A program made the translations under genes and the position numbers. From Chara braunii (taxonomy: Eukaryota; Plantae; Charophyceae), in the NCBI GenBank assembly GCA_003427395.1, contig BFEA01000005.1:1747823-1811497 (forward strand): a DNA stretch of 63,675 nt, read 5' to 3'. A model generated the notes under the pieces. The model saw nothing but the letters and a program-made list of their open reading frames with translations. It did no database searches and had not been told where the DNA came from. How positions within the stretch are numbered: position 1 is the first letter of the stretch; every line of letters begins with the position of its first letter. This document shows positions 5,289-61,083 of this stretch, piece after piece.

Positions 5289-5290
5289 CC

Positions 5291-38127: not shown

Positions 38128-38310
38128 GGGATAGAGTATACCAAACCCTCTTTTTCGTTCTCCGGCCTGAGTGAGACGTCTCCTCAATTTCTCAAGCATC
38201 TGAAGGGGATACCAAACCCCGTTCTTTTCTCTGGTCTGCGTGAGGCATTTCCTCAACTTCTCAGACAGGAAACGTATACCAAACACTTTTCACTTTTCTC
38301 TGGTCTGGGA
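38128..38310. repeat. Three ~70-bp units, each with an ATACCAAA-loop hairpin
   Basis: ATACCAAAC at ~38139, ~38209 and ~38276. The equivalent in copy 2 includes the perfect stem GGAAAAGGG-ATACCAAA-CCCTTTTCC (~55460). Confidence 0.8.
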
Positions 38311-38530
38311 ACTTCAAGTGAACCTGCATAACAACAAGTTCCATAGACAACAGATCGCAGCCCCAGCAAACAGACCGTCTGACAACCGGCAGTCAGGCAC
38401 TAGCAAATTAAAATAAAACCGATAAATAAAATAATAAATAATAAAATAATAAAGTAATAAAATAATAAGTTTCTTCACACCCAAGAGTTAATGATTGCCC
38501 TGTTTTTGGCCCATCAGTGGCCAGGAATGA

Positions 38531-39333
38531 CAGACCTCCCGTCAGTCTGACATACCTTATTCAGCCCACCTAAGGCCAGGACCAGTCGTTTGTCTTGACG
38601 GCCGCTTCGACCTGCCTCCAGGTCAGGACCAGCATACCCACTACTCGAGTATGGTAGCCCTTTGGCACTCTCGCCAGGACACCCAGACTATAGCGGGTCT
38701 GGTCACCCTATGAAAGTAGACCTCCCGTCAGTCATACTGTCCCGTACCCGGATTTGATCACTGCGGTCGGGGACCGACTCACCCACCAGTTTTTGGCCTA
38801 GGGTGCTGGCTGCCCCGTCCAGACTTTTGAATGTGGGACCCGGTCTAACCAGAGTTCCAGGCTCTGACGATCCTCAGTGGATTGCATCCTCTGACTGCGG
38901 TAGGGTTCCAGCTGACCCCTTTCGACCTCACAGGCCAGACCCTTGGAGGCTTAGTCTCAGTCGACTACGGAATTCGACACTCGCGTCGGGGACCTGCTGA
39001 CCCTACTTGATTGCAACCTATTGCGGTAAGGCTCTGGCTAGCCCCGATAATCAATGCATCTTTAGGTTAGAGAAGAAAATCCCTGGCGCATACAATCAGG
39101 CAAGCATGTCATAACCCACAAGCAGACTGCCCATGCCCCAAATAACAGGACAAACATTTCCTCAAGAGACGTCACTTCAGTCTCAAGAGGCACTGAACAG
39201 AAACATGATAACCAGCATCAAGCCCTTACATGAGACCTCCCTTCAGTCTCAAGAAGAATGCTTAGTGCTGGTGCCAAAGAGGTCCCTTCCCTCAGTTGGG
39301 AATTTCTTTTCTAAGAGACGTCCCGTCAGTCCC
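38531..39333. repeat. Five dispersed GAC-[STCMCKTCA]-GTC hairpins in the 3' UTR
   Basis: At 38531, 38716, 39166, 39231 and 39315; counterparts at ~55716-56520. Confidence 0.8.
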
Positions 39334-39906
39334 AATGAAATACTGAAATGCTGATTTCAGAGAGGTCCCTTTTCTCATTTGAGTGAAGATAGGCAACTTA
39401 GTCAAGAAACAAGAAGTCCCTCTACTGACAACTCTCAGTCAAGTAAAGTTGAACTTCTTTATGATTGTCCTCATCTGAATTTCTTGGATTGCCAACTTAG
39501 TCAGAGACACGAGGCTCTTTTGCTGACAACTCTCGATCAGACATAAATGAATTTTTTTATGCCCATCATGCTTTTCTCTTTATCATAAAGATAATACTGA
39601 TTACATCTTTTGATGTGCCACAACCATGAGTCTCTCGAATCTTGTCACTGCATCAATGCTCATCGCAACTTTATCTCACAGTTACTCCCCACTCTCAGGG
39701 ACTTGACACTTATGGATCGATTGTAGCACCGAATCAAAGATATAGTTTCATTAACTTTGTTGCTTGCTGAAACAAAAAATTAACTGATATGCCAAAAATT
39801 TAAAAGCTGAATTGACAATGCAAGAACGATCAAAGTCTGTTGAAAACCGAGTCTTGCTGCCTCATTGTCTTATTGTACTCTCTCTCAGTTCTCAGGAACT
39901 GTTCTC

Positions 39907-41130
39907 TTAATGAGATGGTTGTCCTTTTTTTCCTCTCTTTGAGGTCACTGTAGGGATCAGATCAGGATCTCTGAAGATGAACTTACGAAGTCTTGACCCT
40001 GATACCATGTCGTGAACCCTGGATCCATCAATCTCTGAAATCTCATAGACTTTGCCTTCTGCTTCTCCTGTGATTCTGTAAGGACTAAGTCATCTGGGCT
40101 GCAATCGTTTAGTCCATTGAGTCTCAAGAGAACTATCGAACAGAAGAACAACGTCACCAACTTTCAATTTTTTTTTTTTAATATATCTTTTTTTGTTCCA
40201 TTTTTCTTGATCTGATAGTCTGCTGGATGACATTGTCTCTGCAGCATCCATCACTGCTTGATCAACCTCAGATATTTATCTCATTCTGATCTGGAGGAGG
40301 TCTTAAATAGAATAGTCTCTGTCACTCTCTTGACTTGACCATGTTTTGACTATGTTCTCAATTAGCAAGATAGCATACCGACCATACCACAGAGTACATG
40401 GAGCATAACCACTAGTCCTCTTGACAGTGATGTTGTCAGCATATACAGCAGCTCTTAGTATTTTTGGCCAGTTACTAAGATTTACTTCATACCACTTGGC
40501 CAATGAGTCTTTCAGAGTTTTGAAAGCCCTCTCAACAGGTGCGTTTGCTTGAGGATGATAGGTATTCGGATATCGAATTCTGACACCCAACCTTAGAGTG
40601 GTCCTTCTTACAATCTCATTTGTGAACTCTAATCCTCTGTCTGAGACAAACTCTCTGATGAAAGGATACCTTAGATAGACATCCTCTATCCAGTCAGCTA
40701 CCTGCTCGGCTGTCTTCCTCCTCAGAGTCTTTGCCTCAACATAGTTAGAAACATTCTCTTTCATGTTCAATATGTACCTCATCCCTCCCTTGCCTAGTGA
40801 CATGGTGATAACGTCCAAATGAACTTTGCTGCTTGATTATACCAAAATAGTAGGGAATAAAGACTCAATCATGCTCGTAGGAGATGTTTTCTGACATAAC
40901 AAACATGACTTACAAAACCTGTAGATTATTTATCTCATGTCAGGCCAGAAGTAAAGTTTAACTGTCTTAGAGTAGGTTGCTTCAGCAGCTCTATGGTCAC
41001 CTGTAACCCCCTTGTGTAGAACAGCAATTATCTCCGGTTATCTTTCCTTGCCACAAACCACTCTTAGTGGAGGCAGTCCTCCCTTGCCATCCACAAAGAG
41101 GTGACCTCTCTTTAGCATGAGTTTTTTCCT
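39907..41130 (-). pseudogene. pol: Integrase (HHCC, DDE core, GPY/F), copy 1
   Basis: FVSDRGLEFTN, YHPQANAPVER and a C-terminal tail matching WLGPY of copy 2; contains stops and frameshifts. Confidence 0.92.
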
Positions 41131-41423
41131 TAGATTTTTACTATAATATTCCTTCAAGTGTTCTTTCTCCATTTTCTTCCCAATTTCTTGGTAAACTTCA
41201 TCGTACTTTTCAAAGATAAATGATATCTTTTTTTTTTTTTCTCACCTTCGTCTTCATTCTTTGAGCCTGAATTTTCCCCTATCTCATGGACTGCGACGAC
41301 CGCTGCATTGATCTTTGCATGCCAGTCATTCTGTTCTTCCTCATCTTCTTTCCCGAGAATTGATTCATAGACATAGGCATCAGGGATTTCTCCCCACCTG
41401 TCTCTTTCTTTAGGCCATAAACC

Positions 41424-43117
41424 TTACTTATATGAGCTTGGCACTTCATAATCTTCATCATCTTTCTCATCCAGAAAATTATCAACATAAGAAGATTCTT
41501 CAATAGTTCCTTCAATATCTTCTTCTTCTTCATCTTTCCTCCATTCGATTCGACTTAGGGCATCCGCTCTGTTCTTCTCAGTTGGAATATTTTCCAAGAC
41601 AAAATCAAATGTCAAAATGAAGGCTATCCATCTGCTTACTTTTGGATCTACTTGTTGGTGCTTCTTAATTGCACCAATCACAACAGATGCATCAGTTCTC
41701 AGAATGCATCTCCTTCCAAGGACATAGTGTCTGAAGCACCTGAGACAGTGGATAATGGCCAGTAACTCTTTCCTGAACTTGGTGTAGCCTCTTTCTGTGG
41801 AGTTGAGAGTCCATCTCTCAAATCTCAAGGGTCTTTCTCTACCATTTTCATCTTTCTGTATGAGTACACCCCCAAGAGCTTCTTGTCCTCTATGTGCCTC
41901 AATGATGAAGGGTCTACCCTCTTCATCGTAAGAGTAAGGCATTCCCAACACCACACCTCCATCTTTTAAAATTTCTTGTAGAGTTTCTGCAGCAGTCTGT
42001 TTTTTCTCAGTCCAAGATAAATCAGCCCATTGTCTCACCATTTCCCTCAGTGGTTCTGCAAGAGTAGCAAAATGAGGTATGAAAATCCTCCAGAACCCAC
42101 AGACATCAAAAAAGTTTCTGACATCTGTCACCCGCTTGAGGGGCAGAGGCCAGTTCAAAATTTTGTCTATCTTTTGGGGTCAAGGCTCCTACCCTTGGAG
42201 AAACATCTGACGCCCAAAATGGTGACCTCAACTTGGAAGAGAAGCGACTTTGGCCCACTGACAGTCATATTATATTTCTGAAGTCTCTCTAGGACCAGCT
42301 TTACACCTTCAGCATGCTCCCAGACAAACTTCCTAACGTCATCCCCAACCAAACTTTTGTCTCTTACCATAGGTCATTTTACACGATTATCATTAATATA
42401 CGGACTGGTTATCTCAGGTGAGATATCCTGCATGACTTTGATCATATCCTTTTAAACCACTGCCACACCATTAGTCCAACCTTAGGACACCACGCACATT
42501 TGAATGAGACCTCTTTGCGTGACAGTTATTGGTCGACTAGTAAGATCAATGAGAAACTGATCATAGCCAGAATACAAATAAATTAAAGAATAGATGCATC
42601 GGCCATCAAAGGATTCAGAAAGGAGATCAGCATTAGGGAGGCTACTTGCATCACATACCGTTACTGAGTTGAGCTTTTGGAGATTCTGTATCCATCTCAA
42701 TCCACCCCCTGGTTTCCAAAAGCAAAACCAGTGGTTAGCATACGGTCCATCAGCAGGTTCAACAACATTGGAGACCATCTTTTTGTCAAGATATTTTATC
42801 ACTTCTGCTTCTTCTTTCAGGGCATACTTGGTTGGTCTATCATTCCATGGGATGTGATCAACTGTCCAGATTTTGCCATCTTAATCATATCCACATCCAA
42901 TCGCCCTCTTTCTTCATCATTAAAAGATAATGCACCAGAGAACTCTTGATACACCTTGAAGATATATTGTTTCTCTACAGGCAAGATAAATTGATCAGAA
43001 CCTATCTTCATCGTGTCAAACCTTTCTCTGGTGACTCTATTCTCAAATTTCACAGATTTCCTTAATGCCTTAATAATTCTTCTCTCTTTTTCCAATGTCT
43101 CGTCATAATCTTTTTCT
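41424..43117 (-). pseudogene. pol: Reverse transcriptase and RNase H, copy 1
   Basis: KPGGGLRWIQNLQKLN, YSGYDQF, YIND (mutated YIDD), LGGVLIQ, KELLAI, KNRADALSR. Confidence 0.95.
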
Positions 43118-43125
43118 ATTAAGAC

Positions 43126-44076
43126 CAGTGTTGTCACGCGGGGATCCCCGGGGCCCAAGCCGGGGTGGGGGTTTCACCCCCACAACCCCGCCGCGAGGAT
43201 CCCCGACCCCCGTCCCCTCCAAATCAACCCCGCACGTGCCCCNNNNNNNNNNNNNNNNNNNNNNNNNNNNNNNNNNNNNNNNNNNNNNNNNNNNNNNNNN
43301 NNNNNNNNNNNNNNNNNNNNNNNNNNNNNNNNNNNNNNNNNNNNNNNNNNNNNNNNNNNNNNNNNNNNNNNNNNNNNNNNNNNNNNNNNNNNNNNNNNNN
43401 NNNNNNNNNNNNNNNNNNNNNNNNNNNNNNNNNNNNNNNNNNNNNNNNNNNNNNNNNNNNNNNNNNNNNNNNNNNNNNNNNNNNNNNNNNNNNNNNNNNN
43501 NNNNNNNNNNNNNNNNNNNNNNNNNNNNNNNNNNNNNNNNNNNNNNNNNNNNNNNNNNNNNNNNNNNNNNNNNNNNNNNNNNNNNNNNNNNNNNNNNNNN
43601 NNNNNNNNNNNNNNNNNNNNNNNNNNNNNNNNNNNNNNNNNNNNNNNNNNNNNNNNNNNNNNNNNNNNNNNNNNNNNNNNNNNNNNNNNNNNNNNNNNNN
43701 NNNNNNNNNNNNNNNNNNNNNNNNNNNNNNNNNNNNNNNNNNNNNNNNNNNNNNNNNNNNNNNNNNNNNNNNNNNNNNNNNAGCCATCCCCGGCCCCGCA
43801 CCCCGCTCAGCCCCGCCCCGGCCCCGCGCCCAGGGTGACCCCGGGCTCACCAGGGGTGGGTGTAGCCCCGGGGGGGGCCCGAGGTGGGCCCAAAACTGCA
43901 TTTTTGCAGTTTGGCCTAGGGGGTGCAGGATACCGTTGCGCACCTCCCCGTTTTTTTTTGTTTTTTTTTTTTTGTGGGGGAGGGGGGTCCGGAGCCTGGG
44001 TCAGGGGTGCCCACCCCCGGACCCCCGGACCCCCGGACCCCCGCCGGGGCCCTGGGGCCAGGGCTCGACAACCCTG
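43126..44076. mobile_element. hAT-type DNA transposon insertion (interior is mostly gap)
   Basis: 8-bp TSD ATTAAGAC (43118-43125 and 44077-44084); TIRs CAGTGTTGTC / GACAACCCTG; empty site in copy 2 at 59881-59888. Confidence 0.9.
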
Positions 44077-44501
44077 ATTAAGACTGCCACTGGGTTCTTC
44101 TTCAACCCCTTGGGCTTATTTTTTTTTTTTGACCGAGTGGCTATTTTTCTAAAAAATGATGAGTTGATGCAAACTTTAATTCCATTTTTCCACCTTTGGC
44201 AGTCTCAACAGCCTTCTTAAAGGCATCAATCTGCCCATCCTCATCTTTGAGTCTTCCAAGGGTCTTTACAATCTTTGAAATCTGATTGATATCAACTGAG
44301 ACCTCCTCCTTAAGTTCCTGTTTATCTTTTCCCATTAATCTTTCTTGCCCTCTCACCGGACTTTTCCCTTCTAATTGAGTTGACTGATATCTTGTGTTTG
44401 TGATGGTAAGGCGGACAGACCACGAAAGTCTGCTCTTGTGCAGTTTTCGAGTCTTGCAGACTGATCAAGGATGACTCTTCATGACTGAAGAACTGGACAA
44501 C

Positions 44502-44951
44502 CTACATCCTGTGTAAGAACGGAGTGCCCAGAATACAGTCATGATCCAAGTCTGGTATCACAAATCTCAATAACTCGACTGACATCATCCCGACTTCATT
44601 ACGCAGATGGTCAATAAATCCTGCCAAGCAGAGTTCTCCAGCAATATTGCTTAGCGTTTGCATCGCAGGTCTATCAATAGTCAGTCCACAAGCCTCCATT
44701 GCCTTTTGAGAGATAAGTATCATCTCCGCCCAGGAATCCACTAAGGCTCGAATTTTCACTTGATTAATATAGATCGTCGAATAACTATAACCCATGGTTG
44801 CGAATCTCATCTTATATCGACGCAAGGTCTTGTTAACTTGACTAGGAAAGACTGATCCCAAATAATTAACCTCCATTTTTTTCTTCTCAATTAACTTCTT
44901 CAATTCCTCTCTCAACTTAGGTGTTAATGTCATTGCCTCCTTGAAGGGCAA
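44502..44951 (-). pseudogene. pol: Retroviral-type aspartic protease, copy 1
   Basis: ALVDSWAEMILIS (DSG mutated) ... ILGTPFL. Confidence 0.9.
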
Positions 44952-45313
44952 TGTTACCTCTGTTTCTTCGATTATCTTCGTAATTACATCAGTATTTACA
45001 GTTTCATCTTTTAGTTCATTTTAGAGTAAAATTTTATCTTCTTCCCTTGTTCACTTCTCTTGGGTGAAGGTCCCGGTTCTCGATCATTAAGGATTTCAAT
45101 CAGCGCTTCCTCAGTCTTTCTTCTTTTCTTTTCCTCTATCATTTGAAGGGTTAAATGTGCATGAACATTCCTCATTTCCCCAATCACTTTGTCAGGTTCC
45201 ATAACGAGTTCTGGGGGTAATTCACCCTCAAATGACATCATGTTAGCCGAACAAACAGACTCGCTAGGAGAAAATACTACCAACTCAGAGGAAATCTGAG
45301 TAGCAGAATTCTC

Positions 45314-46460
45314 TCATAACGAAAGGCCGCCAGGAATGATCTCATCAGTCATGTCCTCCACTAAAGAGAGAGACCGTAGAGGAAACTCAATCAAGGCAAG
45401 TGAATCATCAGACTCTTGTATAAGTCCCTTAGGCAGTTCACCTACGAAAGTATGTACATTCACCTTAGCCTTTCTTTTTTTATTTTTCTTCATCTTTTCA
45501 TCATGCTTAAGGGCAAGAAGTCGCATACCTCCAGGATGTCTAGGATTTAATTTGTTCCATGAACTGTCACAAACATGACCCTTTGCATCCATTTTTGTCA
45601 CCCCACTCTTCACATCCTCTTCCAAAGGCTTACAGCAAGTGGTTGTGTGACCTCCTTTACCACAATAATAGCAGACAAATTTCTTCTTAAGTCGTTCGTC
45701 GTACTTTCTTCTCTCTCTGTTCCCTTTTTCACCATTTCCTCCATTCTTTTTAGATCTAGAAGAATCACTTCTTTTACCATAGTCATCATCATCATCACCG
45801 TCCTCATCATCATCACTTTCAACCATTTTCTTCTCTTTCTCATCCACAACATGATTGACAGACATGTAGTTCGTCATAAGTCTTTGGATAATATTTTTTA
45901 CATTCAGATTGTTTCCTCTGCATAAACCATTCTCTGTCTCCGAGTCCTTAGCCAACGTACTGATGTGATCCGTGACCACTTCTTTTGAGAGACCGTAGGC
46001 AAGGTTCTGAAAATTGCAACAATTTCATCCCATCTTAGAGGGTAATTTTGAGCCTGATGGAAGGCTGTCTGCCTTTCAGTGTTAGTGAAATTAGTAAGAA
46101 ATATATGGCATCTCTGGGCTTCATCCAAATATAGGATTCTCCTTGCTGTTCGGATAAAAGTTTGGAGAAAAACATTGAAAGTGTCATACTTAGCTCTTCT
46201 GATGTTGAGTAAATCCTTGGTTGTAGTTGGAATTGAGTCTTTCTCAAATTCTCTTTTCATTCTTTCCTTGATTTCTTCCCATGTAGTGACCCCTTCCATC
46301 AATTCTTGAACAGCCAACCTCGAGTCAGTGTCACAGTAAGATAAAAGGTGCTTAAGCCGTTGCTTGTTTGTCCAGCCATAACGAAGCCCAAACAATTCAT
46401 ATTCATGTAAAAAATAATTTACTTGAGACCCTCTGAAGCATGAAATTCTCTCATCTGACC
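45314..46460 (-). pseudogene. gag: Gag (capsid-like region plus zinc knuckle), copy 1, frameshifted
   Basis: CYYCGKGGHTTTCC knuckle; a frameshift near 45970 relative to the open copy 2. Confidence 0.88.
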
Positions 46461-46546
46461 TCTTTGTTCTTGCAATATCTGACCCTCCTTTTATAGTATC
46501 AACCCTCTATACCAGTTCCCGTATAACACCTACCAGAGTCTCTTCA

Positions 46547-47218
46547 TTAGTTCCCGCAGAAGAACTCGGTCTCCCTCGTCCTTCCATCTTGACCATAGAA
46601 TCTCCCTGATACTTTCTTCTCTCTCTCTGTCATTTTTGTCCTCCCTTTTCTTATTTTTGAATCTCTCACTCTTCTCGCAAGGGATAGAGGTTCATTCCTC
46701 TCTTCTCTTGTCTGCTCTACCCCTTCAGAATTTTGTGCATAGAGCGTATTGGCAATAATAGGCTGGGTAGTAATCAATGACAATGAAATCCTTCTCGGTC
46801 TTCCAATATAATCTTCAATCAGCTCTCTTTCATCATCTCTACTCAATCTTCTATTATACCCTCTCACAGTACCCCGAATCATAAAGTATCGTGTCAAGTC
46901 TATGATCTCATAATCAAATTGCATTGCTTACAGACTGTTGCTGATTCTTCTTGCAAGAGAAACTCGTTCCCTAGAGGAGTGATACGATGCTCCTTCAGTA
47001 GCTCCCACTTTCTCCACCCTCAGTAAATAGCTAGTCTCAGTCTGGTCAATGACGACTCACACGGCAAAATCTCTCATCTGATCAAAGAAGGGTTGCAAGA
47101 ACTCAAGCTCATCCAAGGTACAGAGGTTTCTGTCACAGATCCGAAGAGTCTCTTCAACCTTGACTATCCTTCCTTCCAGCACTACCCCAAACGTTAGCTG
47201 TTCAGCCAAGTTGGGCAT
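46547..47218 (-). pseudogene. ORF upstream of gag (accessory ORF or Gag N-terminal extension) with in-frame stops
   Basis: MPNLAEQLTFGVVLEGRIVKVEE... continues through two stops into ORF 46547-46924. Confidence 0.5.
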
Positions 47219-47934
47219 TGTTAACCATCATAATCAACAACTGAAAGATAGATCTTAGGCTGGACAAATTCAGGTATTTCGAACCTATGTTCAAAGGTAG
47301 TCAAAATAAATGATTTTATCATCACAATAGAGTTTTTTCCTCTTGCTCTACCAACCTCCGTAGTAGCCTCTAATAGAGGCATCCAATCTCATCTCTCTTC
47401 AAATCCATCAACAACTGAGAACTCATGGAGCCTCTCACATTCTCTTACTCTCACTCTCCATGTATCTTTTCTCCTTAACTTTTCTAGCCACTCTTTTGTT
47501 CGCTCAAGACTGATATACGCCCCTTTGAGACACTCCAAGTAGTCAGCTTCCTCCTTTAGACTTATAAAGTTGATGATTTCCACTAAGAATTTGATTTTCT
47601 GGCTGTGCTACCACACTTCGCACCTACCGGCAGAGGGGAAGGAGCCTAAATCGACGGACCCTTATAAATCAGCAAAACAAGGTGCTCGAATTTTATACAG
47701 AGGAGTAAACTCTCACGTCCAGACTGTCTGAGTTCAGAAATTGACCACAGGAATGTGAAACGTTATTTGTCATTTACCACAAGTCTCATGCCTCAGGATT
47801 ACAAAAGGATTATCATACCCTGTCACCTCATAAAGTTTACCCCTCACAGTAGTTATCCTTGCTACTTAGAGTATTCTTCTTGGACTCTCTTCACTTTCCA
47901 TACAAAATTTATCATAGCAGATCAATTGTCTCTC

Positions 47935-48790
47935 GACGAGTTGATATAAGGTAAGAGAGGGGATGGGAGTCCCTCAAAGACAGTAAATCGAGTAGATCCA
48001 ATGAAACATTTATTCTCCATCTCAAATCTTTCTTTCTCTTTCAGTATAACCTCTTCATCAAATCCCCATCATCTCCCTTACACTGCCTCAGTACTCCTTT
48101 CTTTTGGGACATAAATTCTCACATCATACGTGTCCATGTCAATACAGTAGAATGTCTGTATGTAGAGTCGTTCCTGTTCCCATCCGCTTTCGACCATTTC
48201 ATACTTGACGACCTCATATGAGAACATTTCTTTCTTACTTAAAGCATTCAACGATCTTATGAGTCTTTCAACATTTTCATTGCTCGGACCCGAACCTCTG
48301 CCAAATTTTGACCTTCGCTGTTCAGTTTCCTCTGCTGAGATTTCCTTCGTTCCCATGGCAATACATCTATTTTTGCCAATCCAGTACCATGTTGATGATT
48401 GGTAACCGGTTGCTCCCGTCAAAATAGTTGTCAGGAATATGAGGAATAGAAATTGCCTCATACGTTACTGACATTAAGCCCCATTCCACTCTCTTCCTCT
48501 GCTTGATTAACTCTGTCTTCTCATCACAAAAAGATTGGGTCGCAATTCCCCACAACCAGTTAAAGGCCTCACCATCATCACAGTCTCCCATCTTGACATA
48601 AGGACGGATATCATATAAATCTCCCTCCAACACGCTGATGGCCGAATTGCCAGAACGGTAGATCCAGCAATGCTCATACTGATAGGGGAATATTCCTTTA
48701 GTAGTTACTTTTGAGAGCTCTTTTAATGCATCAGTAGTTAATATTTTTGATGAAGTCTCTGAGCTTCTGACTCTTTCTTTCCCTTCTTAG
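47935..48790 (-). pseudogene. Leader ORF with two tandem ORF-X-like domains
   Basis: LSKVTTKGIFPYQY..DLYDIRPYVKMG..WGIAT..EKTEL and LNALSKKEMFSYEVV..TYDVRIYVPK..WGF..EKE..LPSPLLPY. Confidence 0.7.
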
Positions 48791-49068
48791 TGTTTTAAGG
48801 ACATCATAGGCTCATGAGGCATACCTAAGATCAAGTCTGGTTTTCTCCAATCAGTAATATCAATCTCCTTCTCCAATCCAGTGTGGTACCTCACACAAGG
48901 AAATATAGGATTCAAATAGTAACTTGGTTTGTCAAGAGAATAATGTCTCAAAGAAGATTGCAAAATCGATCTGGAAAACTCAGAAATTGTTAACAGTTCT
49001 CAAGGTCTAATTAAAGCTCAAAGCTGTTTGTTGACCCAGGCTCTTTCCGACCACGAAAAATTTTCATG

Positions 49069-49086
49069 TCCCCGACAACGGCGCCA
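49069..49086 (-). promoter_or_regulatory. tRNA-Asp primer-binding site
   Basis: TGGCGCCGTTGTCGGGGA (1 mismatch to the 5271 copy), 4 nt after the LTR end ...GTGTGACA. Confidence 0.92.
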
Positions 49087-49573
49087 TTTTTGTCACACTT
49101 TTTTCAGTCGGGCCTCTTCAAGCGACTAGAAAGCCAACAAGCTGTCTCGCAGGATTTTGTATATCGATTGCAATAAATAAAATAAAATAAATTAAATAAT
49201 GCAAATCCCTTCCTATTGTGTGCGTCCGGCTTCGAGTGCGACCCTTCAATTGCGGTCTTCGCCGGTCCCCGGTCTTAGGAATCTTTTACTTTGATTCGGA
49301 ACAGCAAACAATTATATCATAGTCATAAAATCCTAGTGTGTCATCCATGCATCAATTTTGTCGATTTTCTACTTTTGAGAACTGTGACAGAATCATCAAA
49401 AAATGCAAGCATCAAGCAAACGACAATGCAAGAAGCAGGATTGACGGACTCGAGCAAAGACAAGGTCAAGTGAGGGAAGAATAAGAACTCATAATAATCT
49501 CAGAAAGTACACATGTAAGGAGCATGGCTAGCACCAGTCAAAAGTCCTCACTCGTCCTTCGAAATCCTCACAC

Positions 49574-50227
49574 TCAATTTCTCATTTTGTTGTCTGTTGC
49601 CTGGACTTTCTGCCATGTCTTGGTACTCTCCGAGGTTGTGGTCTCTGTATGTAGAGCCACCTGAAGCCCGCGAGCTCCGAGCACTTCCATCCAAGTCCCA
49701 TTATACGAAACACAAAACTCCTTCCACAGTGTAGGGAGATACGGTTGAGAGAAGATCCCTCGTCTGAGATATGGGAACTCGGAAGCCTCGGTCATAGACT
49801 CGTAGTCGATTGCTGCTGGCGAAATATACCTCTTTGCCAGATCCACCAGGTCACCCCAATTAGAGTTATCTGTGAGAGTAAAGGGAACTGGAGGCTTTGG
49901 GTAATCAGTGTAGAGATTGGGTCCGAAGCTACGGTTTAGCTTCACTCCGTTCTCATCTAGCTCTTTCTCCCTTTCTTCAAGGTACCTGGTTGCTGCAATC
50001 CAGACTGAAGCGATGTGCTCATGGGTTTCTTTCCCCTTTCTCACGTAGAGTCTTAGGTCGTGAATGATACCACCCGCAAACTTGGTAAGGACAACATAGA
50101 TTGTCATGTCACCTTGCCTGAAGCCAGTAGCACTGACATATTGGTATTGGAAGGCATCCTTGAGTGCGATCTGGTTGAGATTGGTCAAGACTGACCCGTG
50201 AACTGAAAATGATTGAACTGCACTCAT
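49574..50227 (-). CDS. LTR-encoded accessory protein ORF-X (217 aa, unknown function)
   Basis: Open ATG-to-stop frame; protein-level conservation with 17009-17241 and with the leader domains. Confidence 0.8.
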   Translation of the reverse strand: MSAVQSFSVHGSVLTNLNQIALKDAFQYQYVSATGFRQGDMTIYVVLTKFAGGIIHDLRLYVRKGKETHEHIASVWIAATRYLEEREKELDENGVKLNRSFGPNLYTDYPKPPVPFTLTDNSNWGDLVDLAKRYISPAAIDYESMTEASEFPYLRRGIFSQPYLPTLWKEFCVSYNGTWMEVLGARGLQVALHTETTTSESTKTWQKVQATDNKMRN

Positions 50228-50518
50228 GGGATGAGGTGGAAGTTATGACTGGTTTGTGCCTTCTGGCAAAAGTACCATCTAAATAATGTCAAACTTTGTG
50301 CTGGATAGCAACAGTCGAGTGCTTGTTCAGTTCAGACTAAGATTGAACGTTTGCTGAGATGACCGGTTACCGAGTACTGATTGAAACTGACTGTTGCTGA
50401 AATTGTTAACTGAGAACTGAATGCTGTTGAGATTGCTGATTGAGAACTTTCTTTCACACCTGGTCCCTGAGTGTTGCTGTGTGACTCCCACCAAGTCGGT
50501 TCATCCTAATAATATGGC

Positions 50519-50562
50519 CAGGGTTGTAAGGCGGGCCCCGGGGTCGGGGCTCGACAACCCTT
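50519..50562. mobile_element. 44-bp minimal hAT derivative
   Basis: TIR CAGGGTTGT / ACAACCCT; 8-bp TSD AATATGGC / AATATTGC; absent from the other LTR (~32276); same GGGCTCGACAACCCT end as 43126-44076. Confidence 0.85.
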
Positions 50563-50608
50563 AATATTGCACCAGACCTTAAATATTCCTCTCTTTCCTC
50601 CCTTACTA

Positions 50609-50857
50609 TTAATTATTGATGGCCACTCGTGCTTGATTAATAGTTTCCATGGAAGAAAGCGTGTTGTGCAGTTTTCCATCGGTTCCATAGAAATAAATAA
50701 CATATTCGATGAATGTTTGCCCCCTCACCAACTCTAGCGCCTTACGTCTCATTGCCTTCACATAGTGCTGGGCATTTTTCATCGCATCCTCTTTCCAACC
50801 TTCCATTATGTCTTTACAAGCCCCGCACTTCATCACCAGTTTCTCACAGTCCTTCAT
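50609..50857 (-). CDS. Small LTR-encoded protein ORF-S (82 aa, unknown function)
   Basis: ATG-initiated ORF; divergent homolog at 16460-16681; stop-containing copy at ~32325-32573. Confidence 0.7.
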   Translation of the reverse strand: MKDCEKLVMKCGACKDIMEGWKEDAMKNAQHYVKAMRRKALELVRGQTFIEYVIYFYGTDGKLHNTLSSMETINQARVAINN

Positions 50858-53800
50858 AATTCTCTCCCCTCATTTTTTTCCCAGCTTCCTATGCCTTAGC
50901 TTGATGAGGCATAGTGAGGCGAGACAGTAGTTGTGTCGATTAGCACTTGGGGATGCAGTGTGGAAATTTTCTCACTTGGTTTGTGAAAAACGGTATGACG
51001 GCAGCCGGTCTACTAGTGACACAGGGGTGCTTCATTCTCAGGTCACGCCTAACTGTCCGGGCACTTCATTGTTTCTCCCGGCAGGGCCTTCCGTTCAGGC
51101 TCGAGGTCAGGTTCCAACCGGAGTAGCTATGAGGAAGTAGATGACGAGTTCAAACCCTTTTGTATTCCTATAATATCTGGGAGATTCTGACCGTTATTGG
51201 ATTTCTGCTCTGATCGAGACACTTCCCATCTCGGTTTGACGGAAACCCGAACCTACTCTCTTCTGAGTGACGGTTTGCAACGAGCCCTTCTAAGAATTTC
51301 AAAATGCCTTAATCGTCCTTTCATCGAATATACACGATCAAAATACTCCTCGCCCAAAGTGAGGGTTTTATGCCTAGGCTGCTCTACAACAGTTCGAATA
51401 CTAAGAGAGAGATATTATATGCAGAATGTCTTCCAATTTGTATGTGTTGCCTTGAGTCGTCTGCCTAGCCACTACCTCACTTAGTCAGCCTTCGCCTCTA
51501 AGTTGATCTCATATAGGGAATGATCACTCCCGATTATGAAGCACACTAAGACTCAGCTTATCAAAAAACAGGTTGGGAAGGACGCTCATACTCAAAGCCA
51601 TAGTCTTCAAGTGTACTTCATATAGTGCTCGAAAAAAATCTGGTCTAAAATCCGGGAAGCTGATGACTTCGTATAAAGGGCCTTTATCACCATTAAGCTT
51701 GACCATTTAGCTGGCTGTATAGTTTGTCTCCGAGTGATGAGGGAGTTGTGAAACAGGACAGAAGAGGACCAACATATCTCATATTCTTGTCTCAATCTCC
51801 GCCAACATCCGAAGCGCTAATTTCTTATACTAATCACCATCAAGTAGGAACTTAACCATTAAATAAGCAATTATTCTCAACAGTTTTTTCTTTCCCCTAT
51901 AACTCATCACATAAACTCAGCATCCACGAGTGATTGATTCCCATTACTTAGCACGACGAGGTTGAATGTTCTATCCAATGGACTACGTGCACATTCACGA
52001 ACTTACGTGACAGCTCTCGGACGAGTCCTTTATATTGGCGTAGGTCTTTGCACGATCACACTCATGAGGGTACCACTAATTATCATAGTCGCCTGGGTAT
52101 TCACACGTTAGAGTGATCACTCATGCGTACAAGTTATCACCTACAAGCCCTCGCGGTCTTCTGCTAGAATACCTGCGAGCCCGTTCTGCCGCACATTCGT
52201 GCAATCATGCGGACACACACCGACTCGTAGGGTCGATGCCAAACTTTCAGCCACAGGTTTTTCACCAGCCCTCCAAAGAGGGGAAATTGATACTCTATCA
52301 ACTACTGTGATCTCGACCCTCTTCGTTGCGTTCACACGCATAGTATTCACAAGATTAAACACTCAACGAAGGTCTCTTGCGAACTAGTGATTATGATGCG
52401 CCCCTCCAGTAGAAACAAGAGTAAGGAAGACTAGACTCAATGAAAAAATTGCGAGTATTCCTTATGGCTCGCAGTAAGACCATCACCTTACTCGATGAAC
52501 CAGGCAAATAAATTTACAAGAATATCCCGAATTTGAAAGGAATCAATTTCGTCAGCCCTCAGCACTAATGAGGTTTTATACAACGGATTGCTCACACAAC
52601 ATGCACCGCTGATACAGGTAGCGATTAACACAATTTCATGAACATCCCATTTTCGACTCGCTCTGTTGATCTTAATATATCATTAGGCCCCGTTCTCACA
52701 ATGATCATGCGCCGAGCGTTTCAACGGCTAACCCCTTCTGCGAGCCGTGCCCAGCTAGTTTACTCGTCTCCCCTATCGAAACAAGTTTCACGGACACAGA
52801 CGCCAAAGAATCAGAATGCGACTCGATCGCATAGATGAGTGACGTCATCAAGAGAGCATGACCCGTCTAGTTACCTAGCACTCATTCCCTAATACTTGTT
52901 CCCCTTTTTTCCTCACTCTCTCATCGTTAGGGCGGGCTCAAGATGGATGAGCACAACATCAAAGGAACAATTCGTAAACGTAGCGGAGGAGGTCGGACAA
53001 CAGAGAACGTTAAAGCGTGCCTTTCTCCCACTCATCTGTCGAGAGTTACCAACAACCAAGATCGCCTCCCTACCCATTTAACATACTGCACTCTAAGACT
53101 CCTCACTTCATTAGCCATTATACATGTTATCCATCTTCCCATTTCAGTCCAGAGCGACTCAAGTACCAAGTTCAGGGGTACAAGTAGCAATCTGCAAGGG
53201 TCTCGGGATTCAGGTCATTTTCGTCACTCGCCGCTTCGGTGTCCCGATCCAGATGTCGCTGCTCCTGTTCTACCATATCAATCGAGGTCTCTGCCTCCAG
53301 CTAAGAAACTGACAAACTGTCACTTTCACTTCGTCCGACACCAAGGCGCTAACACAACGATACAAACCCAAGCCCAGATCCATAACTCACTACTCGACCA
53401 TTTTTCCCCTTTTCTTGTTTTTACATCTTCCTCCTTCCAACACTGATCGTCGCCACTAAGCCTACCACGTAACCCAGCCACAAGAGTCCAGCGCGCGGTT
53501 GAGAAGGTCGCATGGGTTATCGCTGCCACGTCTCTGCACCTGGTCCGGATCAAGACCATCAGGACCCGACAATCACTTCAACTACGAGCAGGCCATAGAC
53601 TATCAAACGGCAGCCGCGATTCAAAAATTGAGCCGTTGGCCCCGCGAAATAGCGTAGACCGAAGTGAAAACCGATTCTGACGAATTGAGTGAAAAGGAAA
53701 GTTAAATAATAACAACAATAATAATTATAAAGTCGAGAGGGAAAAGGGGTTATAACATCATTACTACCTTGAACTAAAACAGGAACTCAGGCCATCGCAT

Positions 53801-56800
53801 AGATTCGGCGTTTAATTTTTCTTTTTTTTTTTCATATTTTCTTTCCCTTCGCTTCTCCTTTTCTTGGTTCCTTTCATTTTGACAGCGATATCCGTCCCAT
53901 GCACCTAACCCATAACCTGGCCAAGGGCACCCGGCGCGCAGTAGAAAGGACCACGCTAGTCTCTCCCCCTTCGCGTCCCAGGGCGAGCCCGACGGCTACC
54001 ACGGCCACAAGCCGATAGTGCTCGGCTGTATAGCAGGGTGCCGAGCCCGCATGGACCAAGGGTAAGTCTTGTGGCGCAACCCCCCCTTTTTGTTGAGGCA
54101 GGCACCAACAGGATGGGTCCACGTCAAGGTACAGCCTGGGTAACCCCCCCTTTTTGCTGAGGCAGGCACCAACAAGATGGGTCCACGTCAAGCTACAACC
54201 CGGATACTAGGGATAGTAGAGGTTCAGGAACATGCCTACACGCCGCGACGTGGGAGCAAGAGGCCGATACCAAGCAGGGACTTGGTACGCAGAAGAGGGC
54301 TGGGACACCGCACCCGCCGACATGATACCAAACCCCCGCCCAGCGTCCCCGCTGGGTCAAAACGCAAGCACAAACAGTATAAAATAGTACACGCCGACAG
54401 ATTCATCTTCATTGTGGCCTACTGTGTAGTTCGTACGACGGGTTTTGCACCAAAGCTGCTTCTCATATTCTCGCAGCACTTGCATTCTCGCTTTCTTCTT
54501 TTCATTGCTTGCTGCTTTTCCTTTTTTTTTTTTTTTTTTCAAGCTTTACACAACTATGTTTTTCTCTTTTCTTTAACGGTTCGCCCTTTTCGTTTTCCTA
54601 ACTCATCCAGCTGCTGTGTATCCTCTCTATCATTTTAGTAGCCGCCACCTCGCGCAAGACGTGAGTATAGCTCGGAGGAGGAGGAAGAAGAAGGGCGGCG
54701 CTGTGGTACATACTCTAAACTTTATCTGTGATATCCCCCTTCTAGTTGGTCTGAGAGGACTCAATCTCCAAACAAGATGGAGTATTATTAGAAGAAGTTC
54801 GAGGCGCGGTACGACGCGCCAACCACTTCGTCCCCTCCTTACTCACCTAGAGTTCCCACTACCCCTGTAGCGAGTAGGGTTTCAGTGTCCGTTACCTCAC
54901 CTCCTAATCCCTGTGCAGTCTCTTCCTCTTCTCATCCCAATAACTGCACTCTTTGTTGTATCTGCTTCCTTCTCGTCTTACTTCAAGTTGGGTTCATGAC
55001 TGTCTTCTACATTCTGTATAAGCATGATTTCCTCTCGAATTTCTGAATTGATTCCTCTAAGGTCTTTTGCTTATATCACACTTTACAGCATTCCTGGCTT
55101 AAGAGTATGAATACATTAAGGACGGGGATGTAGGTTCCTCGTGAACCAGGCCGCTTGTCGGCCACCAAATAAATTTTTAAGAAGAATCTTTCATCTCTTG
55201 TTGGCTTGGCTTACACGCTGAACTCTTTCAGCAACGAAGGTTACCTTGTACCTTGTTCTAACAGTTGTGCCGGGGATGTTATCCAAGTAACGATGACACT
55301 CACTCTGTTTGCCATGCCGGGGATAGAGTATACCAAACCCTCTTTTCCGTTCTCCGACCTGAGTGAGACGGCTCCTCAACTTCTCAAGCAACTGAAAGGG
55401 ATACCAAACCCCGTTCTTTTCTCTGGTCTGAGTGAGGCGTTTCCTCAACTTCTCACACAGGAAAAGGGATACCAAACCCTTTTCCCTTTTTTCTGGTCTG
55501 GGAACTTCAAGTGAACCTACATAACAACAAGTTTCACAGACAACAGATCGCAGCCCCAGCAAGCAGACCCTCTGACAACCAGCAGTCAAGCAGTAGCAAA
55601 TTAAAATAAAACCGATAAATAAAATGATAAATAATAAAATAATAAAATAATAAGTTTCTTCACACCCAAGAGTTATTGATTGCCCTGTTTTTGGCCCACG
55701 ACTGGCCAGGAATGACAGACCTCCCGTCAGTCTGACATACCTTATTCAGCCCACCTCAGGCCAGGACCAGTCAGACCATTTGTCTTGACGGCCCCTTCGA
55801 CCTGCCTCCAGGTCAGGACCAGCATACCCAGTACTCGAGTATGGTAGCCCTTTGGCACTCTCGCCAGGACACCCAGACTATAGCGGGTCTGATCACCCTA
55901 TGACAGTATACCTCCCGTCTGTCAAACTGTCCCGTATTCGAATTTGACCACTGCGGTCGGGACCGACTCACCCACCAGTTTTTGGCCTAGGGTGATGGCT
56001 GCCCCGTACAGTCTTTTGAACGTGGGACCCGGTCTAACCACAGTTCCAGGCTCTGACGAACCTCACTGGATTGCATCCTTTGACTGCGGTAGGGTTCCAA
56101 CTGACCCCTTTCGACCTCACAGGCCAGACCCCCGGAGGCTTACCCTCAGTCGACTACGGAATTCGACACTCGTGTCGAGGACCTGCTGATCCCACCAGAT
56201 TGCAACCTACTGCGGTAAGGCTCTGGCTAGCCCCGATAATCAATGCATCTTTAGGTAAGAGAAAAAAATCCCTGGCGCATACAATCAGGCAAACATGTCA
56301 TAACCCACAAGCAAACTGCCCATGCCCCAAATAACAGGACAAACATTTCATCAAGAGACATCACTTCAGTCTCAAGAGGCATTGAACAGAAACATAATAA
56401 CCAGCATCAAACCCTTACAGGAGACCTCCCTTCAGTTTCAATAAGAATGCTTAGTGCTGGTCCCAGAGAGGTCCCTTCCCTCAGTTGGGAATTTCTTTTC
56501 TAAAAGACGTCCCGTCAGTCCCAATGAAATACTGAAATGCTGATCTCAGAGAGGTCCCTTTTCTCATCTGAGTGAAGATAGGCAACTTAGTCAAGAAATA
56601 CGAAGTCCCTCTACTGACAACTCTCCGTCAAGTAAAGTTGAACTTCTTTATGCCTGTCCTCATCTGAATTTCTTAGATTGACAACTTAGCCAGAGACACG
56701 AGGCTCTTCTGCTCACAACTCTCGATCAGACATAATTGAACTTCTTTATGCCCATCATGTTTTTCGCTTTATCATAAAGATAATACTTATTACATCTTTT

Positions 56801-57095
56801 GATGTGCCACAACCATGAGTCTCTCAAATCTTGCGACTGCGTCAATGCTTATCGCAACTGTATCTCACAGTTACTCCCCACTCTTTGGGACTTGACACTC
56901 ATGGATCGACTGTAGCACCGCATCAAAGGTATAGTTTCATTAACTTTGTTGCTTGCTGAAACAAAAAATTAACTTATATGCCAAAAAATTAAAAGTTGAA
57001 TTGACAATGCAAGAAGGATCAAAGTCTGCTGAAAACCGAGTCTTGCTGCCTCACTGTCTTATTGTACTCTCTCTCAGTTCTCTGAAACTGTTCTC

Positions 57096-60000
57096 TTACT
57101 GGGATAATTGACCTTTCTTTCCTCTTTTTGAGGTCACTGTAGGGATCAGATCAGGGTCTCTGAAGATGAACTTACGAAATCTTGACCCTGATACCATGTC
57201 GTGAACCCTAGATCCATCAATCTCTGAAATTTCATAGACTTTGCCTTCTGCTTCCCCTGTGATTCTGTAAGGACCAAGCCATCTAGGCTCCAATCGTTTA
57301 GTTCATTGAGTCTCAAGAGAACTATCGAACAGAAGAACGTCGTCACCAACTTTCAATTTCTCTTTTCTTATATATCTTTTTTTGTTCCATCTCTCTTGAT
57401 CTGATAGTTTGTTGGATGTCATTCTCTCTGCAGCATCCATCACTGGTTGATCAACCTTTGATATTTATCTCATTCTGATATGGAGGAGCTCTTAAATAGA
57501 ATAGTCTCTGTCACTCTCTTGACTTGACCATGTTTTGACTATTTTCTCAATTGACAATGTAGCATACCGAGTATACCAAAGAGTAAATGGAGCATAATCA
57601 GTAGTCCTCTTGACAGTGATGTTGTCAGCATATACAACAGCGATTAGTATTTTTGGCCACTTACTGAGATTTCCTTCACACCATTTGGCCAATGAGTCTT
57701 TCAGAGTTCTGTGACCCCTCTCAACAGGTGCGTTTGCTTGAGGATGATAGGTAGATACATATCGAATTCTGACACCCAACCTGAGAGTGGTCCTCCTTAC
57801 AATCGCATTTATGAACTCTGATCTTCTGTCTGAGACAAACTCTCTAATGAAAGGATACCTGAGATATACTTCCTCTATCCAGTCAGCCACCTGCTCGGAT
57901 GTCTTCCTCATCAGAGCCTTTGCCTACACATAACCAGAAACATTATCTCTCATGTTCAATATGTACCTCATCCCTCCCCCCTCGTGTAGAGCAGCAATTA
58001 TCTCCGGGTATCTTTCTTTGGCACAAACCACTGTTAGTGGAGACAGTCCTCCCTTGCCATCCACAAAGACATGACCTCTCTTTAGCCTGAGCTTTTTCCT
58101 TAGATTCTTACAATAATATTCCTTTAACTGTTCTTTCTCTATTTTCTTCCCAATCTCTTGGTAAACTTCATCATACTCTTAAAAGATAAATGATATCTCC
58201 TTTAACTGTTCTTTCTCCATTTTCTTCCCAATCTCTTGGTAAACTTCATCATACTCTTAAAAGATAAATGATATCTCTCCTTCTTTCTTCACACCTTCTT
58301 CTTCATTCTTTGAGCTTGAACTTTCCCCTATCTCAGGGACTGCGACGACCGCTGCATTGATCTTTACCTACCAGTCATTATGTTCTTCTTTTTTTTCCCG
58401 AGAATTGCTTCATAGACACAGGTATCAGGGATTTCTCCCCAGCCGTCTCTTTCTTTAGGCCATAAACTCCACTTATAAAAGTTTGGCACTTCATAATCTT
58501 CATCATCTTTCTTATCCTGAAAATTATCAACATGTGGACATTGGTCAGTAACTCTTTTCATAACAAGGTGTAGTCCTGCTGTCAAATCTCATGGGTCTTT
58601 CTCTACCATTTTCATCTTTCTGTATGAGTACACCCCCAAGAGTTACTGATCCTCCATCTGCCTCAATGATGAAGGGTCTACCCTCTTCATCGTCATAGTA
58701 GGGCACTCCCAACACTACACCTCCATCTTTTAATTTTTCTTGTAGAGTTTCTGTAGCAGTCTGTTTTTTCTCAATCCAAGATAAGTCAGCCTCTTGTCTC
58801 ACCATTTCCCTAAGTGGTTCTGCAAGAGTACCAAAATGAGGTATGAAAATCCTCCAGAACCCATAGACACCAAAAAAACTCCTGACATCCGTCACCCGCT
58901 TGAGGGGCAGAGACCAGTTCAAAAATTTGTCTATCTTCTTGGGGTCGGGGCTCCTACCATTGGAGAAACATCTGAAGCCCAAAATGGTGACCTCGGCTTG
59001 GAAAGGAAGCGACTTTGACCCACTGGCAGTCAAATTATATTTCTGAAGTCTCTCTAGGACCAGCTTTACACCTTCAGCATGCTCCCAGACAAACTTTCTG
59101 ACACCATCCCCAACCAAAGTTTCGTCTCTTACCATAGGTCCTTTCAGAGGATTATCATCAATATAGGGACTGGTTATCTCAGGTGAGATATCCTGCATGA
59201 CTTTGATCATATCCCTTTGAACCACTGCCACACCATTAGTTCAACCTTGGGGCACCACGCACATCTGAATGAGGCCTCTTGGAGTGGCAGTTATTGGTCG
59301 GCTAGTGGGATCAATGGAAAACTGATCATAGCCAGAATACAAATCAATTAAAGAATAAATACATCGACCAGCAAAGGATTCAGAAAGGAGATCAGCATTA
59401 GGGAGACTACCTGCATCACGTACCGTTACTGAATTGAGCTTCTGGAGATTTTGTATCCATCTCAATCCACCCCCTGGTTTCCAAAAGCAAAACCAGTGGT
59501 TAGCATAAGGTCCATCAGCAGGTTCAGCAACATTGAAGACAATCTTTTTGTGAAGATACTTTACCACTTCTGCTTCTTCTTTCAGGGCATACTTGGTTGG
59601 TCTATCCTTCCATGGGAGGTGATCAACTGTCCAGATTTTGCCATCTTAATCGTATCCACATTCAATCGCCCTCTTTCTTCATCATTAAAAGAGAATGCAC
59701 CAGAGAACTCTTGACACACCTTGAAGATATATTCCTTCTCTTTAGGCAAGATAAATTGATCAGAACCTATCTTCATCGTCTCAAACCTTTCTCTGGTGAC
59801 TCTATTCCCAAATTTCGCAGATTCCCTTAATGCCTTAATAATTCTTCTATCTTTTTCGAGTGTCTCGTCATAATCATTCTATTAAGACTGCCACTGGGTT
59901 CTTCTTCACCCCCTTGGGCTTATATTTTTTTTTTGACTAAGTGGCTATTTTTCTAAAAAATGATGAGTTGATGCAAACTTTAATTCCATTTTTCCACCTT

Positions 60001-60771
60001 TGGCAGTCTCAAGAGCCTTCTTAAAGGCATCAATCTGTCCATCCTCATCTTAGAGTCTTCCAAGGGCCTTTACCATCTTTGAAATGTGATTGATCTCAAC
60101 TGGAACCTCCTCCTTAAGTTCCTGTTTATCTTTTCTCTTGATCTTTCTTGCCCTCTCAGCGGACTTTTCCCTTCTAATTGAGGTGACTGATATTTTGTGC
60201 TTGTGATGGTAAGCCGGGCAGACCACGAAAGTCTGCTCTTGTGCAGTTTCCGGGTCTTGCGGACTGATCTATAATGACTCTTCATGACTAAAGAACTGGA
60301 TAGCGTACATCCTGTGTAAGAACGGAGTGCCCAAAATACAGTCATGATCCAAGTCTTGTATCACAAATCCCAATAACTCGACTGACATCATCCCGACTTT
60401 CATAGACAGATGGTCAATAAATCCTGCTACGATGAGTTCTCCAGCAATATTGCTTAGCGTTTGGATCGCAGGCCTATCAATAGTCAGTCCACAAGCCTCC
60501 ATTGCCTTTTGAGAGATAAGTATCATCTCCGCCCCAGAATCCACCAAGGCTCAAATTTTCACTTGATACAGATCGTGAAATAACCATAACTCATGGTTGC
60601 GAATCTCATCTTACATCTAGGCAAGGTCCTCTTAACTTGACTAAGAAAGACTGCTCCCAAATAATCAACCTCCGTTTTTTTCTTCTCAATTAACTTCTTC
60701 AATTCCTCTCTCAACTTAGGTGTTAATATCATTGGTTCCTTGAAGGGCAATGTTACCTCTGTTTCTTCCAT
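57096..60771 (-). pseudogene. pol: pol (PR-RT-partial RH-partial IN), copy 2
   Basis: VDSGAE, DLYSGYDQF, PQG, YIDD, YHPQANAPVERGH, WLGPY. Deletions remove the RH C-terminus (~58575) and most of the IN zinc finger (~57975); 78-bp duplication at 58121-58276. Confidence 0.93.
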
Positions 60772-61083
60772 TATCTTAGTAATTACATCAGTAATTACAG
60801 TTTCATCCTTTAGTTCACTTTTGAGTACAATTTTATTTTCCTCCTTTGTTCACTTCTCTTGGGTGAACGTCCCGGTTTTCGATCATCAAGGATTTCAATC
60901 AGCGCTTCCTCAGTCTTTCTTCTTTTCTTTGCCTCTATCATTTGAGGGGTTAAATGTGCATGAACATTCCTCACTTCCCCAATCACCATGTCAGGTTCCA
61001 TAACGAGTTTTGGGGGTAATTCACCCTCAAATGACATCATGTTAGTCGAACAAACATATTCGCTAGGAGAAAATACTACCAAC

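Follow-up and report, generated by a model that had tools for sequence, protein, structure and literature searches.

We found that ORF-X, a 217-codon frame on the minus strand of Chara braunii contig BFEA01000005.1, is best explained as a conserved accessory gene, here in a damaged copy, that belongs to a group of Gypsy retrotransposons, likely from Chara. It lies at 49574-50227 of the 63,675-nt stretch of DNA analysed here, referred to as the window. We are highly confident that ORF-X is one member of a real, element-borne gene family, whose proteins of about 130 residues are carried by Ty3/Gypsy elements. Extra ORFs in plant LTR retrotransposons are already known (PMC7264820, PMC11963269, PMC11728184), and what is new here is the protein family, its likely position in the LTR, a paired ORF (ORF-Y) and a tandem array in the leader. 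A phrase search of the retrotransposon literature for ORFs in LTRs returned no report, most subscription papers and supplements being outside its scope. The Chara literature, searched by title and abstract start with the Chara genome paper outside the scope, contained nothing on such an accessory family.

The window consists of repeat DNA of eukaryotic type and holds two blocks (30961-46835 and 49091-62573) that are 88-96% identical by blastn, and a decayed gag-protease-RT-RNaseH-integrase region is present on the minus strand of each. The blocks are two tandem Ty3/Gypsy elements with one common middle LTR. The class is recognized by the domain order of gag, protease, RT, RNase H and integrase, and by an LTR end of CA followed by a primer-binding site. 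With its large LTR and extra ORFs, and with no Pfam match to a chromodomain, the carrier fits the non-chromoviruses. Its features are:

39920-46506, minus strand: gag-protease-RT-RNaseH-integrase of element 1, decayed, from the domain search
57100-62244, minus strand: gag-pol of element 2, decayed, from the domain search
49091-54078, minus strand: middle LTR common to both tandem Gypsy elements, 3' end CA at 49091 seen directly, start at 54078 deduced from the purine tract, alternative 53425
49069-49086, minus strand: primer-binding site starting with TGGCGCC, four bases past the LTR end
54079-54091, minus strand: best polypurine-tract candidate, A5G7 then T-TG (in the sister element A5G11 then TG, 36966-36951)
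30961-36950, minus strand: 3' LTR of element 1, start deduced, with an insertion of about 1.15 kb at 34922-36077
50516-50578, no strand assigned: insertion of 63 bp, its ends inverted, located between ORF-Y and ORF-X and absent from other copies

The primer-binding site at 49086-49069 is putatively of the tRNA-Asp type. The sister LTR ends at 30961, where it abuts unrelated flank, and its insertion at 34922-36077 (about 1.15 kb) contains a 119-bp tandem repeat. The pol of element 1 is interrupted by another insertion of about 950 bp (43125-44077, partly an N gap) with the same terminal GGGCTCGACAACCCT motif as the 63-bp insertion at 50516-50578, and these two likely represent one small mobile family. 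The tandem elements differ by only 1.4-3.8% between 61091-62090 and 45394-46330, compared with 5.5-11.6% elsewhere, possibly through gene conversion or assembly collapse in gag. Gag and pol have an observed/expected CpG ratio of 0.29-0.36; the accessory ORFs have 0.42-0.76, and the upstream LTR region 0.94. The sequence replacing the leader of element 2 contains a 207-codon open frame (62636-63259, plus strand), which gave no Pfam match and resembles nothing elsewhere in the window. Other remnants in the window are a Helitron helicase (28189-29539, minus strand, E 1e-24), a DDE_Tnp_4 (Harbinger-type) nuclease (21174-22181, minus strand, E 2e-10) and a U6 snRNA match (11465-11570, minus strand; 57.8 bits, over the gathering score) that may be a pseudogene, its ends being diverged and a U-tail lacking.

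The initial annotation described ORF-X as an intact 217-aa ORF. An ATG-to-stop frame of 217 codons is indeed present, but it is not intact, as 11 nt are missing relative to the sister copy. The relevant positions are:

49574-50227, minus strand: ORF-X, 217 codons, family core at residues ~12-135, similarity to outside homologs up to residue ~173
49710-49711, minus strand: site of the 11-nt shortfall against the sister copy, at codon 173, after which the frame differs from those of the sister and CBR_g30998
49582-49710, minus strand: basic stretch of 42 codons, open when read in the sister's frame (11 K+R, 1 D+E, pI 12)

The Chara protein CBR_g30998 is 62% identical to ORF-X over 144 residues and goes on in the sister's frame. 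Since 11 nt are missing and CBR_g30998 follows the sister's frame, ORF-X has likely left its proper frame over its last 44 codons (residues 173-217). The 42 codons at 49710-49582 are likely the family's own C-terminal tail. Between the sisters, dN/dS of the tail is 0.32 in the sister's frame and 0.96 in the ORF-X frame, with both intervals including 1. When 49091-54078 was shuffled 1000 times, an ATG frame of at least 172 aa appeared in 6 of the shuffles.

Five copies in the window had been claimed, and all five exist; however, the count is probably six, because a frameshifted remnant was found at 47745-47356. Damage was found in every window copy of the family. Besides ORF-X, these are:

31444-31992, minus strand: sister ORF-X, with GTG for ATG, about 127 nt swapped for about 26 nt of filler, a 15-nt deletion and stops
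17009-17259, plus strand: ORF-X ortholog of another family, with a 1-nt frameshift near 17078, cut off past 17259
48367-48822, minus strand: leader paralog 1, with a stop (48789-48787) directly after its ATGs
47864-48356, minus strand: leader paralog 2, its ATG 10 nt past the stop of paralog 1, with three internal stops
47356-47745, minus strand: candidate sixth copy, a frameshifted remnant with the D-x-R-x-Y motif followed by the C-terminal half in another frame

The remnant scores 9 bits and is colinear in two frames (E 0.07-0.14 window-wide), and it is likely a sixth member. Leader paralog 2 is 485 nt shorter than the corresponding region of the metagenome locus L002, at 47919/47918, and joins the second ORF of L002 to the end of its third ORF; the shortfall at this point indicates a hybrid of the second and third paralogs of L002. 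A reading of leader paralog 2 as frameshifted was dropped, as the ENA proteins P0005 and P0006 and L002 all keep to its single frame.

To recover the window copies we used a profile made of four outside ENA proteins only, so that their homology is not circular. This profile found all five, with E 2.5e-26 for ORF-X, 5e-12 for the deleted copy in the sister LTR (31992-31444), 9e-8 for the divergent plus-strand ortholog (17009-17259), 5e-24 for leader paralog 1 (48822-48367) and 2e-10 for leader paralog 2 (48356-47864). The deleted copy, the ortholog and the two leader paralogs reported at first are thus all present. Profile-profile comparison between the paralog groups was significant (E 4e-8, 7e-6 and 3e-5), so that the copies do align with one another, while a reversed-translation control with three other family profiles gave best E values of 0.033, 3.9 and 0.95. 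The conserved core is marked by D-x-R-x-Y with an aromatic-x-Y ahead of it, by two tryptophans and by a run of prolines, and the motif proposed earlier holds in outline (F/Y-x-Y, [HY]D[LIV]R-x-Y, W, PxPP, W).

A 12-row profile searched against 1,835,955,588 representatives gave eight matches at E <=0.001. They comprise three Chara braunii gene models, four complete ENA proteins of 121-161 aa from contigs of 0.5-0.7 kb, and one false match; the query already contained P0005, and P0007-9 were new. The false match, P0010, consists of nine short repeat matches in a bacterial protein and was dropped as chance. The three gene models are the sole named homologs of ORF-X, and each fuses the domain to RT pieces. 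Two further ENA members, P0006 and P0011, bring the ENA short proteins to six, and stand-alone complete members measure 121-164 aa. Two of the seven loci from a metagenome scan are real (L001 and L002); the other five (L003-L007; E about 1e-3) were dropped as chance, the three of them that were translated having only a short motif in common. A single-sequence search for proteins of similar length gave none among 135 candidates, and none of eight pattern matches in viral contigs was confirmed.

The ORF-X orthologs are 45-67% identical to ORF-X, and the leader-type and ENA members 16-29%. In the tree, the ORF-X-type and leader-2-type members form separate clades with support of 100/99 each, which makes the LTR-end and leader positions old paralog lineages; leader 1 and P0008 are closer to ORF-X, on long branches. 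L002 has three tandem paralogs spaced 16 and 20 nt apart. One copy of the family domain lies close to the LTR end, and two or three more follow one another in the leader, ahead of gag.

The codon comparisons bear out the earlier statement that conservation is clearer in protein than in DNA. We calculated dN/dS by Nei-Gojobori counts on codons taken from local protein alignments, a procedure that favours low ratios; several dS values are saturated, and the set has no non-coding control. The ratio is 0.11 between ORF-X and L001 (122 codons; pN/pS 0.32, bootstrap 0.24-0.42), 0.20 between ORF-X and the plus-strand copy (66 codons), 0.19 between leader 2 and ORF2 of L002 (150 codons, dS 0.92), 0.25 between leader 1 and L002 (39 codons) and 0.27 between paralogs 2 and 3. 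Judged from these counts, the changes between diverged families (dN/dS about 0.1-0.3) are mostly synonymous, and the ratios are not near 1. In the comparison of the sister elements, ORF-X has dN/dS 0.63 (interval spanning 1), close to gag (0.58) and RT/RH (0.68); copies that have decayed ever since they inserted should look like this.

No known domain could be assigned. Pfam gave nothing at E <=0.001 for ORF-X, the leader paralogs, P0005/6 or the 12 aligned members, with best E values of 0.02-0.09 at chance level. In 94 further stop-to-stop frames of the LTRs, leader and flanks, there was one real Pfam match (DDE_Tnp_4, elsewhere) and one weak one. The PDB searched by sequence gave best E values of 0.06 and 0.64, and the ESM Atlas gave best feature scores of 0.84 and 0.83 with no named family. 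The AlphaFold models of ORF-X 1-172 and P0005, which are 19% identical, have mean pLDDT 65 each and the same predicted core order of helix, three strands (meander), long helix and strand. Foldseek found nothing at E <=0.001 in the PDB and viral sets. VIA-align placed none of 48,161 chains at Z >=5 for either model, which is not proof of a new fold; the best matches, Z 4.8 to Crl (rmsd 3.0, 88 aligned) and Z 4.1 to villin (rmsd 4.8, 82 aligned), are at background level. The predicted core order resembles the alpha-beta-beta-beta-alpha of the dsRBD, with weak Foldseek similarity (E 0.5, TM 0.17) and no Pfam match. The family core is not basic (pI 5.0-8.7). These results, with no Pfam, PDB, Atlas or fold assignment, and the selection between families support the original description of an element-specific accessory protein without a known domain, and no confident match to a known TE or host domain appeared.

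ORF-X is accompanied by a second frame:

50612-50857, minus strand: ORF-Y, 81 codons, 385 nt upstream of ORF-X
32331-32573, minus strand: sister ORF-Y, with two stops
16460-16702, plus strand: ORF-Y ortholog of the plus-strand family, with one stop

A homolog of ORF-Y directly precedes ORF-X in the sister LTR, as does one in the plus-strand copy (37% identical) and another in L001, so that ORF-Y stands ahead of ORF-X in three diverged families. ORF-Y has no Pfam match at E <=0.001, and we rejected it as a paralog of ORF-X (E 0.19). A prediction of the ORF-X/ORF-Y complex, run without use of alignments, scored 0.00, which speaks neither for nor against a complex. In L001, an Ulp1/peptidase C48 ORF (420-1154, plus strand, E 9e-25) is found 1.9 kb upstream of the ORF-Y/ORF-X cassette and separated from it by tandem-like repeats; the window has no Ulp1 counterpart, and this ORF belongs either to a neighbouring transposon or to the L001 element.

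ORF-X had been placed inside a giant LTR, and we consider this location probable. The LTR 3' end at 49091 and the primer-binding site at 49086-49069 are clear, and the ORF-X stop is 483 nt ahead of the LTR end; but the LTR start could only be deduced, because the duplicated block continues through gag-pol. The lists of candidate purine tracts with a TG after them have 12 and 19 entries in the two elements, and those at matching positions in both include 54078/36950 (A5G7-11) and 53425/36298. Starts at 54078 and 53425 would give an LTR of 4.3-5 kb, and non-chromoviruses are known to have LTRs as long as about 5 kb (PMC6317226). No target-site duplication was found by eye at the middle LTR, and inverted LTR ends searched in both elements gave no common start.

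The other reading is that ORF-X is outside the LTR, in a very long pol-to-LTR region, and that a short LTR of about 115 bp begins after the purine run at 49214. We regard it as unlikely. The whole-element duplication indeed does not fix the LTR start, and long pol-to-LTR regions with extra ORFs are common (PMC11963269). The run at 49214 is the sole purine run of at least 9 nt between ORF-X and the LTR end and has TG within 1-2 nt, but it is short (9 nt), and it would leave a tiny LTR on a unit of 16-18 kb, whereas the canonical A5G7-11 tract with TG stands at matching positions 5 kb upstream in both elements. DNA depth over 49140-49407 is ten- to sixty-fold above that of ORF-X, but its peak (49237) is outside the LTR of about 115 bp, and the bin with the LTR end is much lower. 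In the tandem elements the integrase ends 6.9 kb upstream of ORF-X, and the plus-strand copy has no gag-pol within 16 kb upstream, which also speaks against this reading.

In one DNA run, 6284 contigs matched 47800-51800 at >=80% identity, 314 of them at >=99%. The summed DNA depth, which is no copy number, is 1,500-6,500 over ORF-X. It drops to 75-330 along most of 50212-51800 and climbs as high as 92,700 close to the LTR end. Because the depth over ORF-X is far above that of the 1.5 kb upstream, the coding part of ORF-X is common to many diverged copies. The non-coding stretch 49140-49407 near the LTR end has extreme depth, up to 200,000 summed at 49237-49239 and far over its neighbours, and is likely a cis-element common to many families. 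Of two poly(A) runs, one contributed 41 reads (about 6% of that run) and the other 732 (about 12%), and both mate orientations are present in the latter, deeper run; no start or end peaks emerged in these reads on 47800-51800. Reads of related copies cover ORF-X, these related copies are transcribed at a low level, and reads at >=99% identity to the window copy number 0 of 41 and 2 of 732.

As for function, we tentatively favour a regulatory or counter-silencing mechanism, at slightly less than even odds. Acting in trans, the small soluble product would target either a silencing factor of the host or the DNA or RNA of the element itself, so that the element stays expressed. ORF-Y and ORF-X, downstream of the LTR promoter, may be encoded by a short LTR transcript, also from solo LTRs. 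The leader paralogs, 10-20 nt apart, could be read from genomic RNA by leaky scanning or reinitiation; leaky scanning has been reported for bicistronic mRNAs of chlorophyte algae (PMC11291117). The expansion of paralogs and their fast divergence under purifying selection may reflect conflict with host silencing, and it is this fit of small, soluble, fast-diverging yet selected paralogs to host conflict that suggests the counter-silencing role. Accessory ORFs kept in most copies of a family have been argued to be functional, some of them nuclear (PMC7264820). Neither sequence nor fold searches matched a nucleic-acid-binding or anti-silencing protein (best Z 4.8 and 4.1, models at pLDDT 65). The initial annotation had also suggested a partner of 3'-UTR hairpin arrays, which a crude test did not support, as one of 85 non-overlapping 120-nt windows (47001-57200) reached z < -2.5.

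The main rival to the counter-silencing role, which we consider rather less probable, is that the proteins serve the replication cycle, as the accessory factors of retroviruses or pararetroviruses do: they would help to translate the many ORFs that precede gag, to export or package the RNA, or to enter the nucleus. The likely genomic RNA has as many as five small ORFs before gag, those in the leader being 10-20 nt apart, and this arrangement and the basic tail in the sister's frame suit such roles, which have been proposed for plant accessory ORFs (PMC7264820); but three or four paralogs at 16-29% identity are poorly explained by a single housekeeping role, and no fold link to replication-cycle factors was found. 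Much less probable is a gene captured from the host or from a foreign source that hitchhikes without service to the element; it might be a GNAT-like enzyme in decay. GNAT acetyltransferases appear in many weak fold rows (at best Z 4.7 with 99 residues at rmsd 4.6, and Z 3.8 for the other model; Foldseek E 0.07), and L001 has its Ulp1 protease ORF upstream of the ORF-X homolog. However, Z under 5 is background, no family member has a Pfam match to GNAT, no cellular homolog was found among the 1.84 billion representatives, and in the Chara gene models the domain is fused to parts of reverse transcriptase; passive carriage is also hard to reconcile with the purifying selection seen between families and with the repeated duplication.

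Fungal drive genes are typically multi-copy, fast-diverging, small and near LTRs, and the family resembles them in its copy number, divergence and nearness to LTRs. A selfish poison-antidote or drive module, with ORF-Y and ORF-X or pairs of paralogs as its two parts, would also agree with the adjacency of ORF-Y and ORF-X in three diverged families. We nevertheless hold it to be very improbable, because there is no toxin-like domain and no membrane segment, and the leader paralogs occur without ORF-Y.

Genes located in or overlapping the LTR that modulate host or element expression are MMTV sag, lentiviral nef and foamy virus bel, which are in U3 by the polypurine tract; ORF-X differs in being near the LTR 3' end, and its sequence and host are unrelated to theirs. 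A close setting is that of the plant non-chromovirus Gypsy elements, which are large, contain tandem repeats and have LTRs as long as about 5 kb (PMC6317226). Their extra ORFs (Athila ORF1/env-like, Ogre plant mobile domain, Retand TRP28, Grande gene23) are likewise element-borne and family-conserved, few having an assigned function (PMC7264820). The Chara-type family differs from these in having no Pfam or profile similarity, in being on the sense strand, in its lack of a membrane segment and in its length of 120-220 codons, below the 250-codon cut-off of PMC6317226. No Pfam match to Athila ORF1 (PF03078) or the Ogre plant mobile domain (PF10536) was found in the family. No transmembrane segment, the mark of env-like ORFs (Athila, SIRE), was found in any of 10 sequences, whose highest 19-residue hydropathy is 0.58-1.15. 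Nor is it of the antisense Retand TRP28/Grande type, as it is on the gag-pol strand and PF04195 matched none of 12 aligned members. Moreover, the family is found in two places, close to the LTR end and, arrayed in tandem, within the leader, whereas PMC7264820 and PMC6317226 place the plant extra ORFs in the internal region.

The Tekay 5' ORFs of sunflower and grasses are likewise sense, upstream of gag and conserved in most members, and have been proposed to modulate RNA silencing (PMC11728184). They are single, about 400 aa and largely disordered (PMC11728184), whereas the Chara-type family is compact, about 130 aa, multiple and without any search match to them. The likeness to the VANC proteins of VANDAL (Mutator) transposons suggested at first stands as an analogy only: VANC is likewise a transposon-encoded accessory protein with diverged paralogs and may be a functional analog, but we found no sequence or fold link to VANC or the plant mobile domain. 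VANC is MuDR-encoded, dicot-specific and structurally related to MAIN (PMC13547354), while the present family is encoded within a Gypsy LTR retrotransposon and not a VANDAL/MuDR DNA transposon. MAIN/plant-mobile-domain gave no Pfam match and is absent from the fold rows listed (models at pLDDT 65).

The family is compact, conserved and single-domain, and is therefore testable. It explains three Chara gene models named "reverse transcriptase domain" as chimeras that include the family domain, and a 250-codon cut-off misses genes like the ORF-X family. A more far-reaching possibility, which we regard as doubtful, is a cassette of up to five small genes around the LTR end (ORF-Y and ORF-X in the LTR, three leader paralogs), of a fold that fits no solved structure, in which solo LTRs would be stand-alone effector genes and the paralogs an evolving anti-silencing arsenal; if true, a VANC-like system would for the first time be known from an LTR retrotransposon of land plants' algal relatives. 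A gene in the LTR is copied to both ends of the element and survives in solo LTRs, and since it would thus be doubled in each element and kept in solo LTRs, a repeat class supposed to be non-coding could yield protein at many loci.
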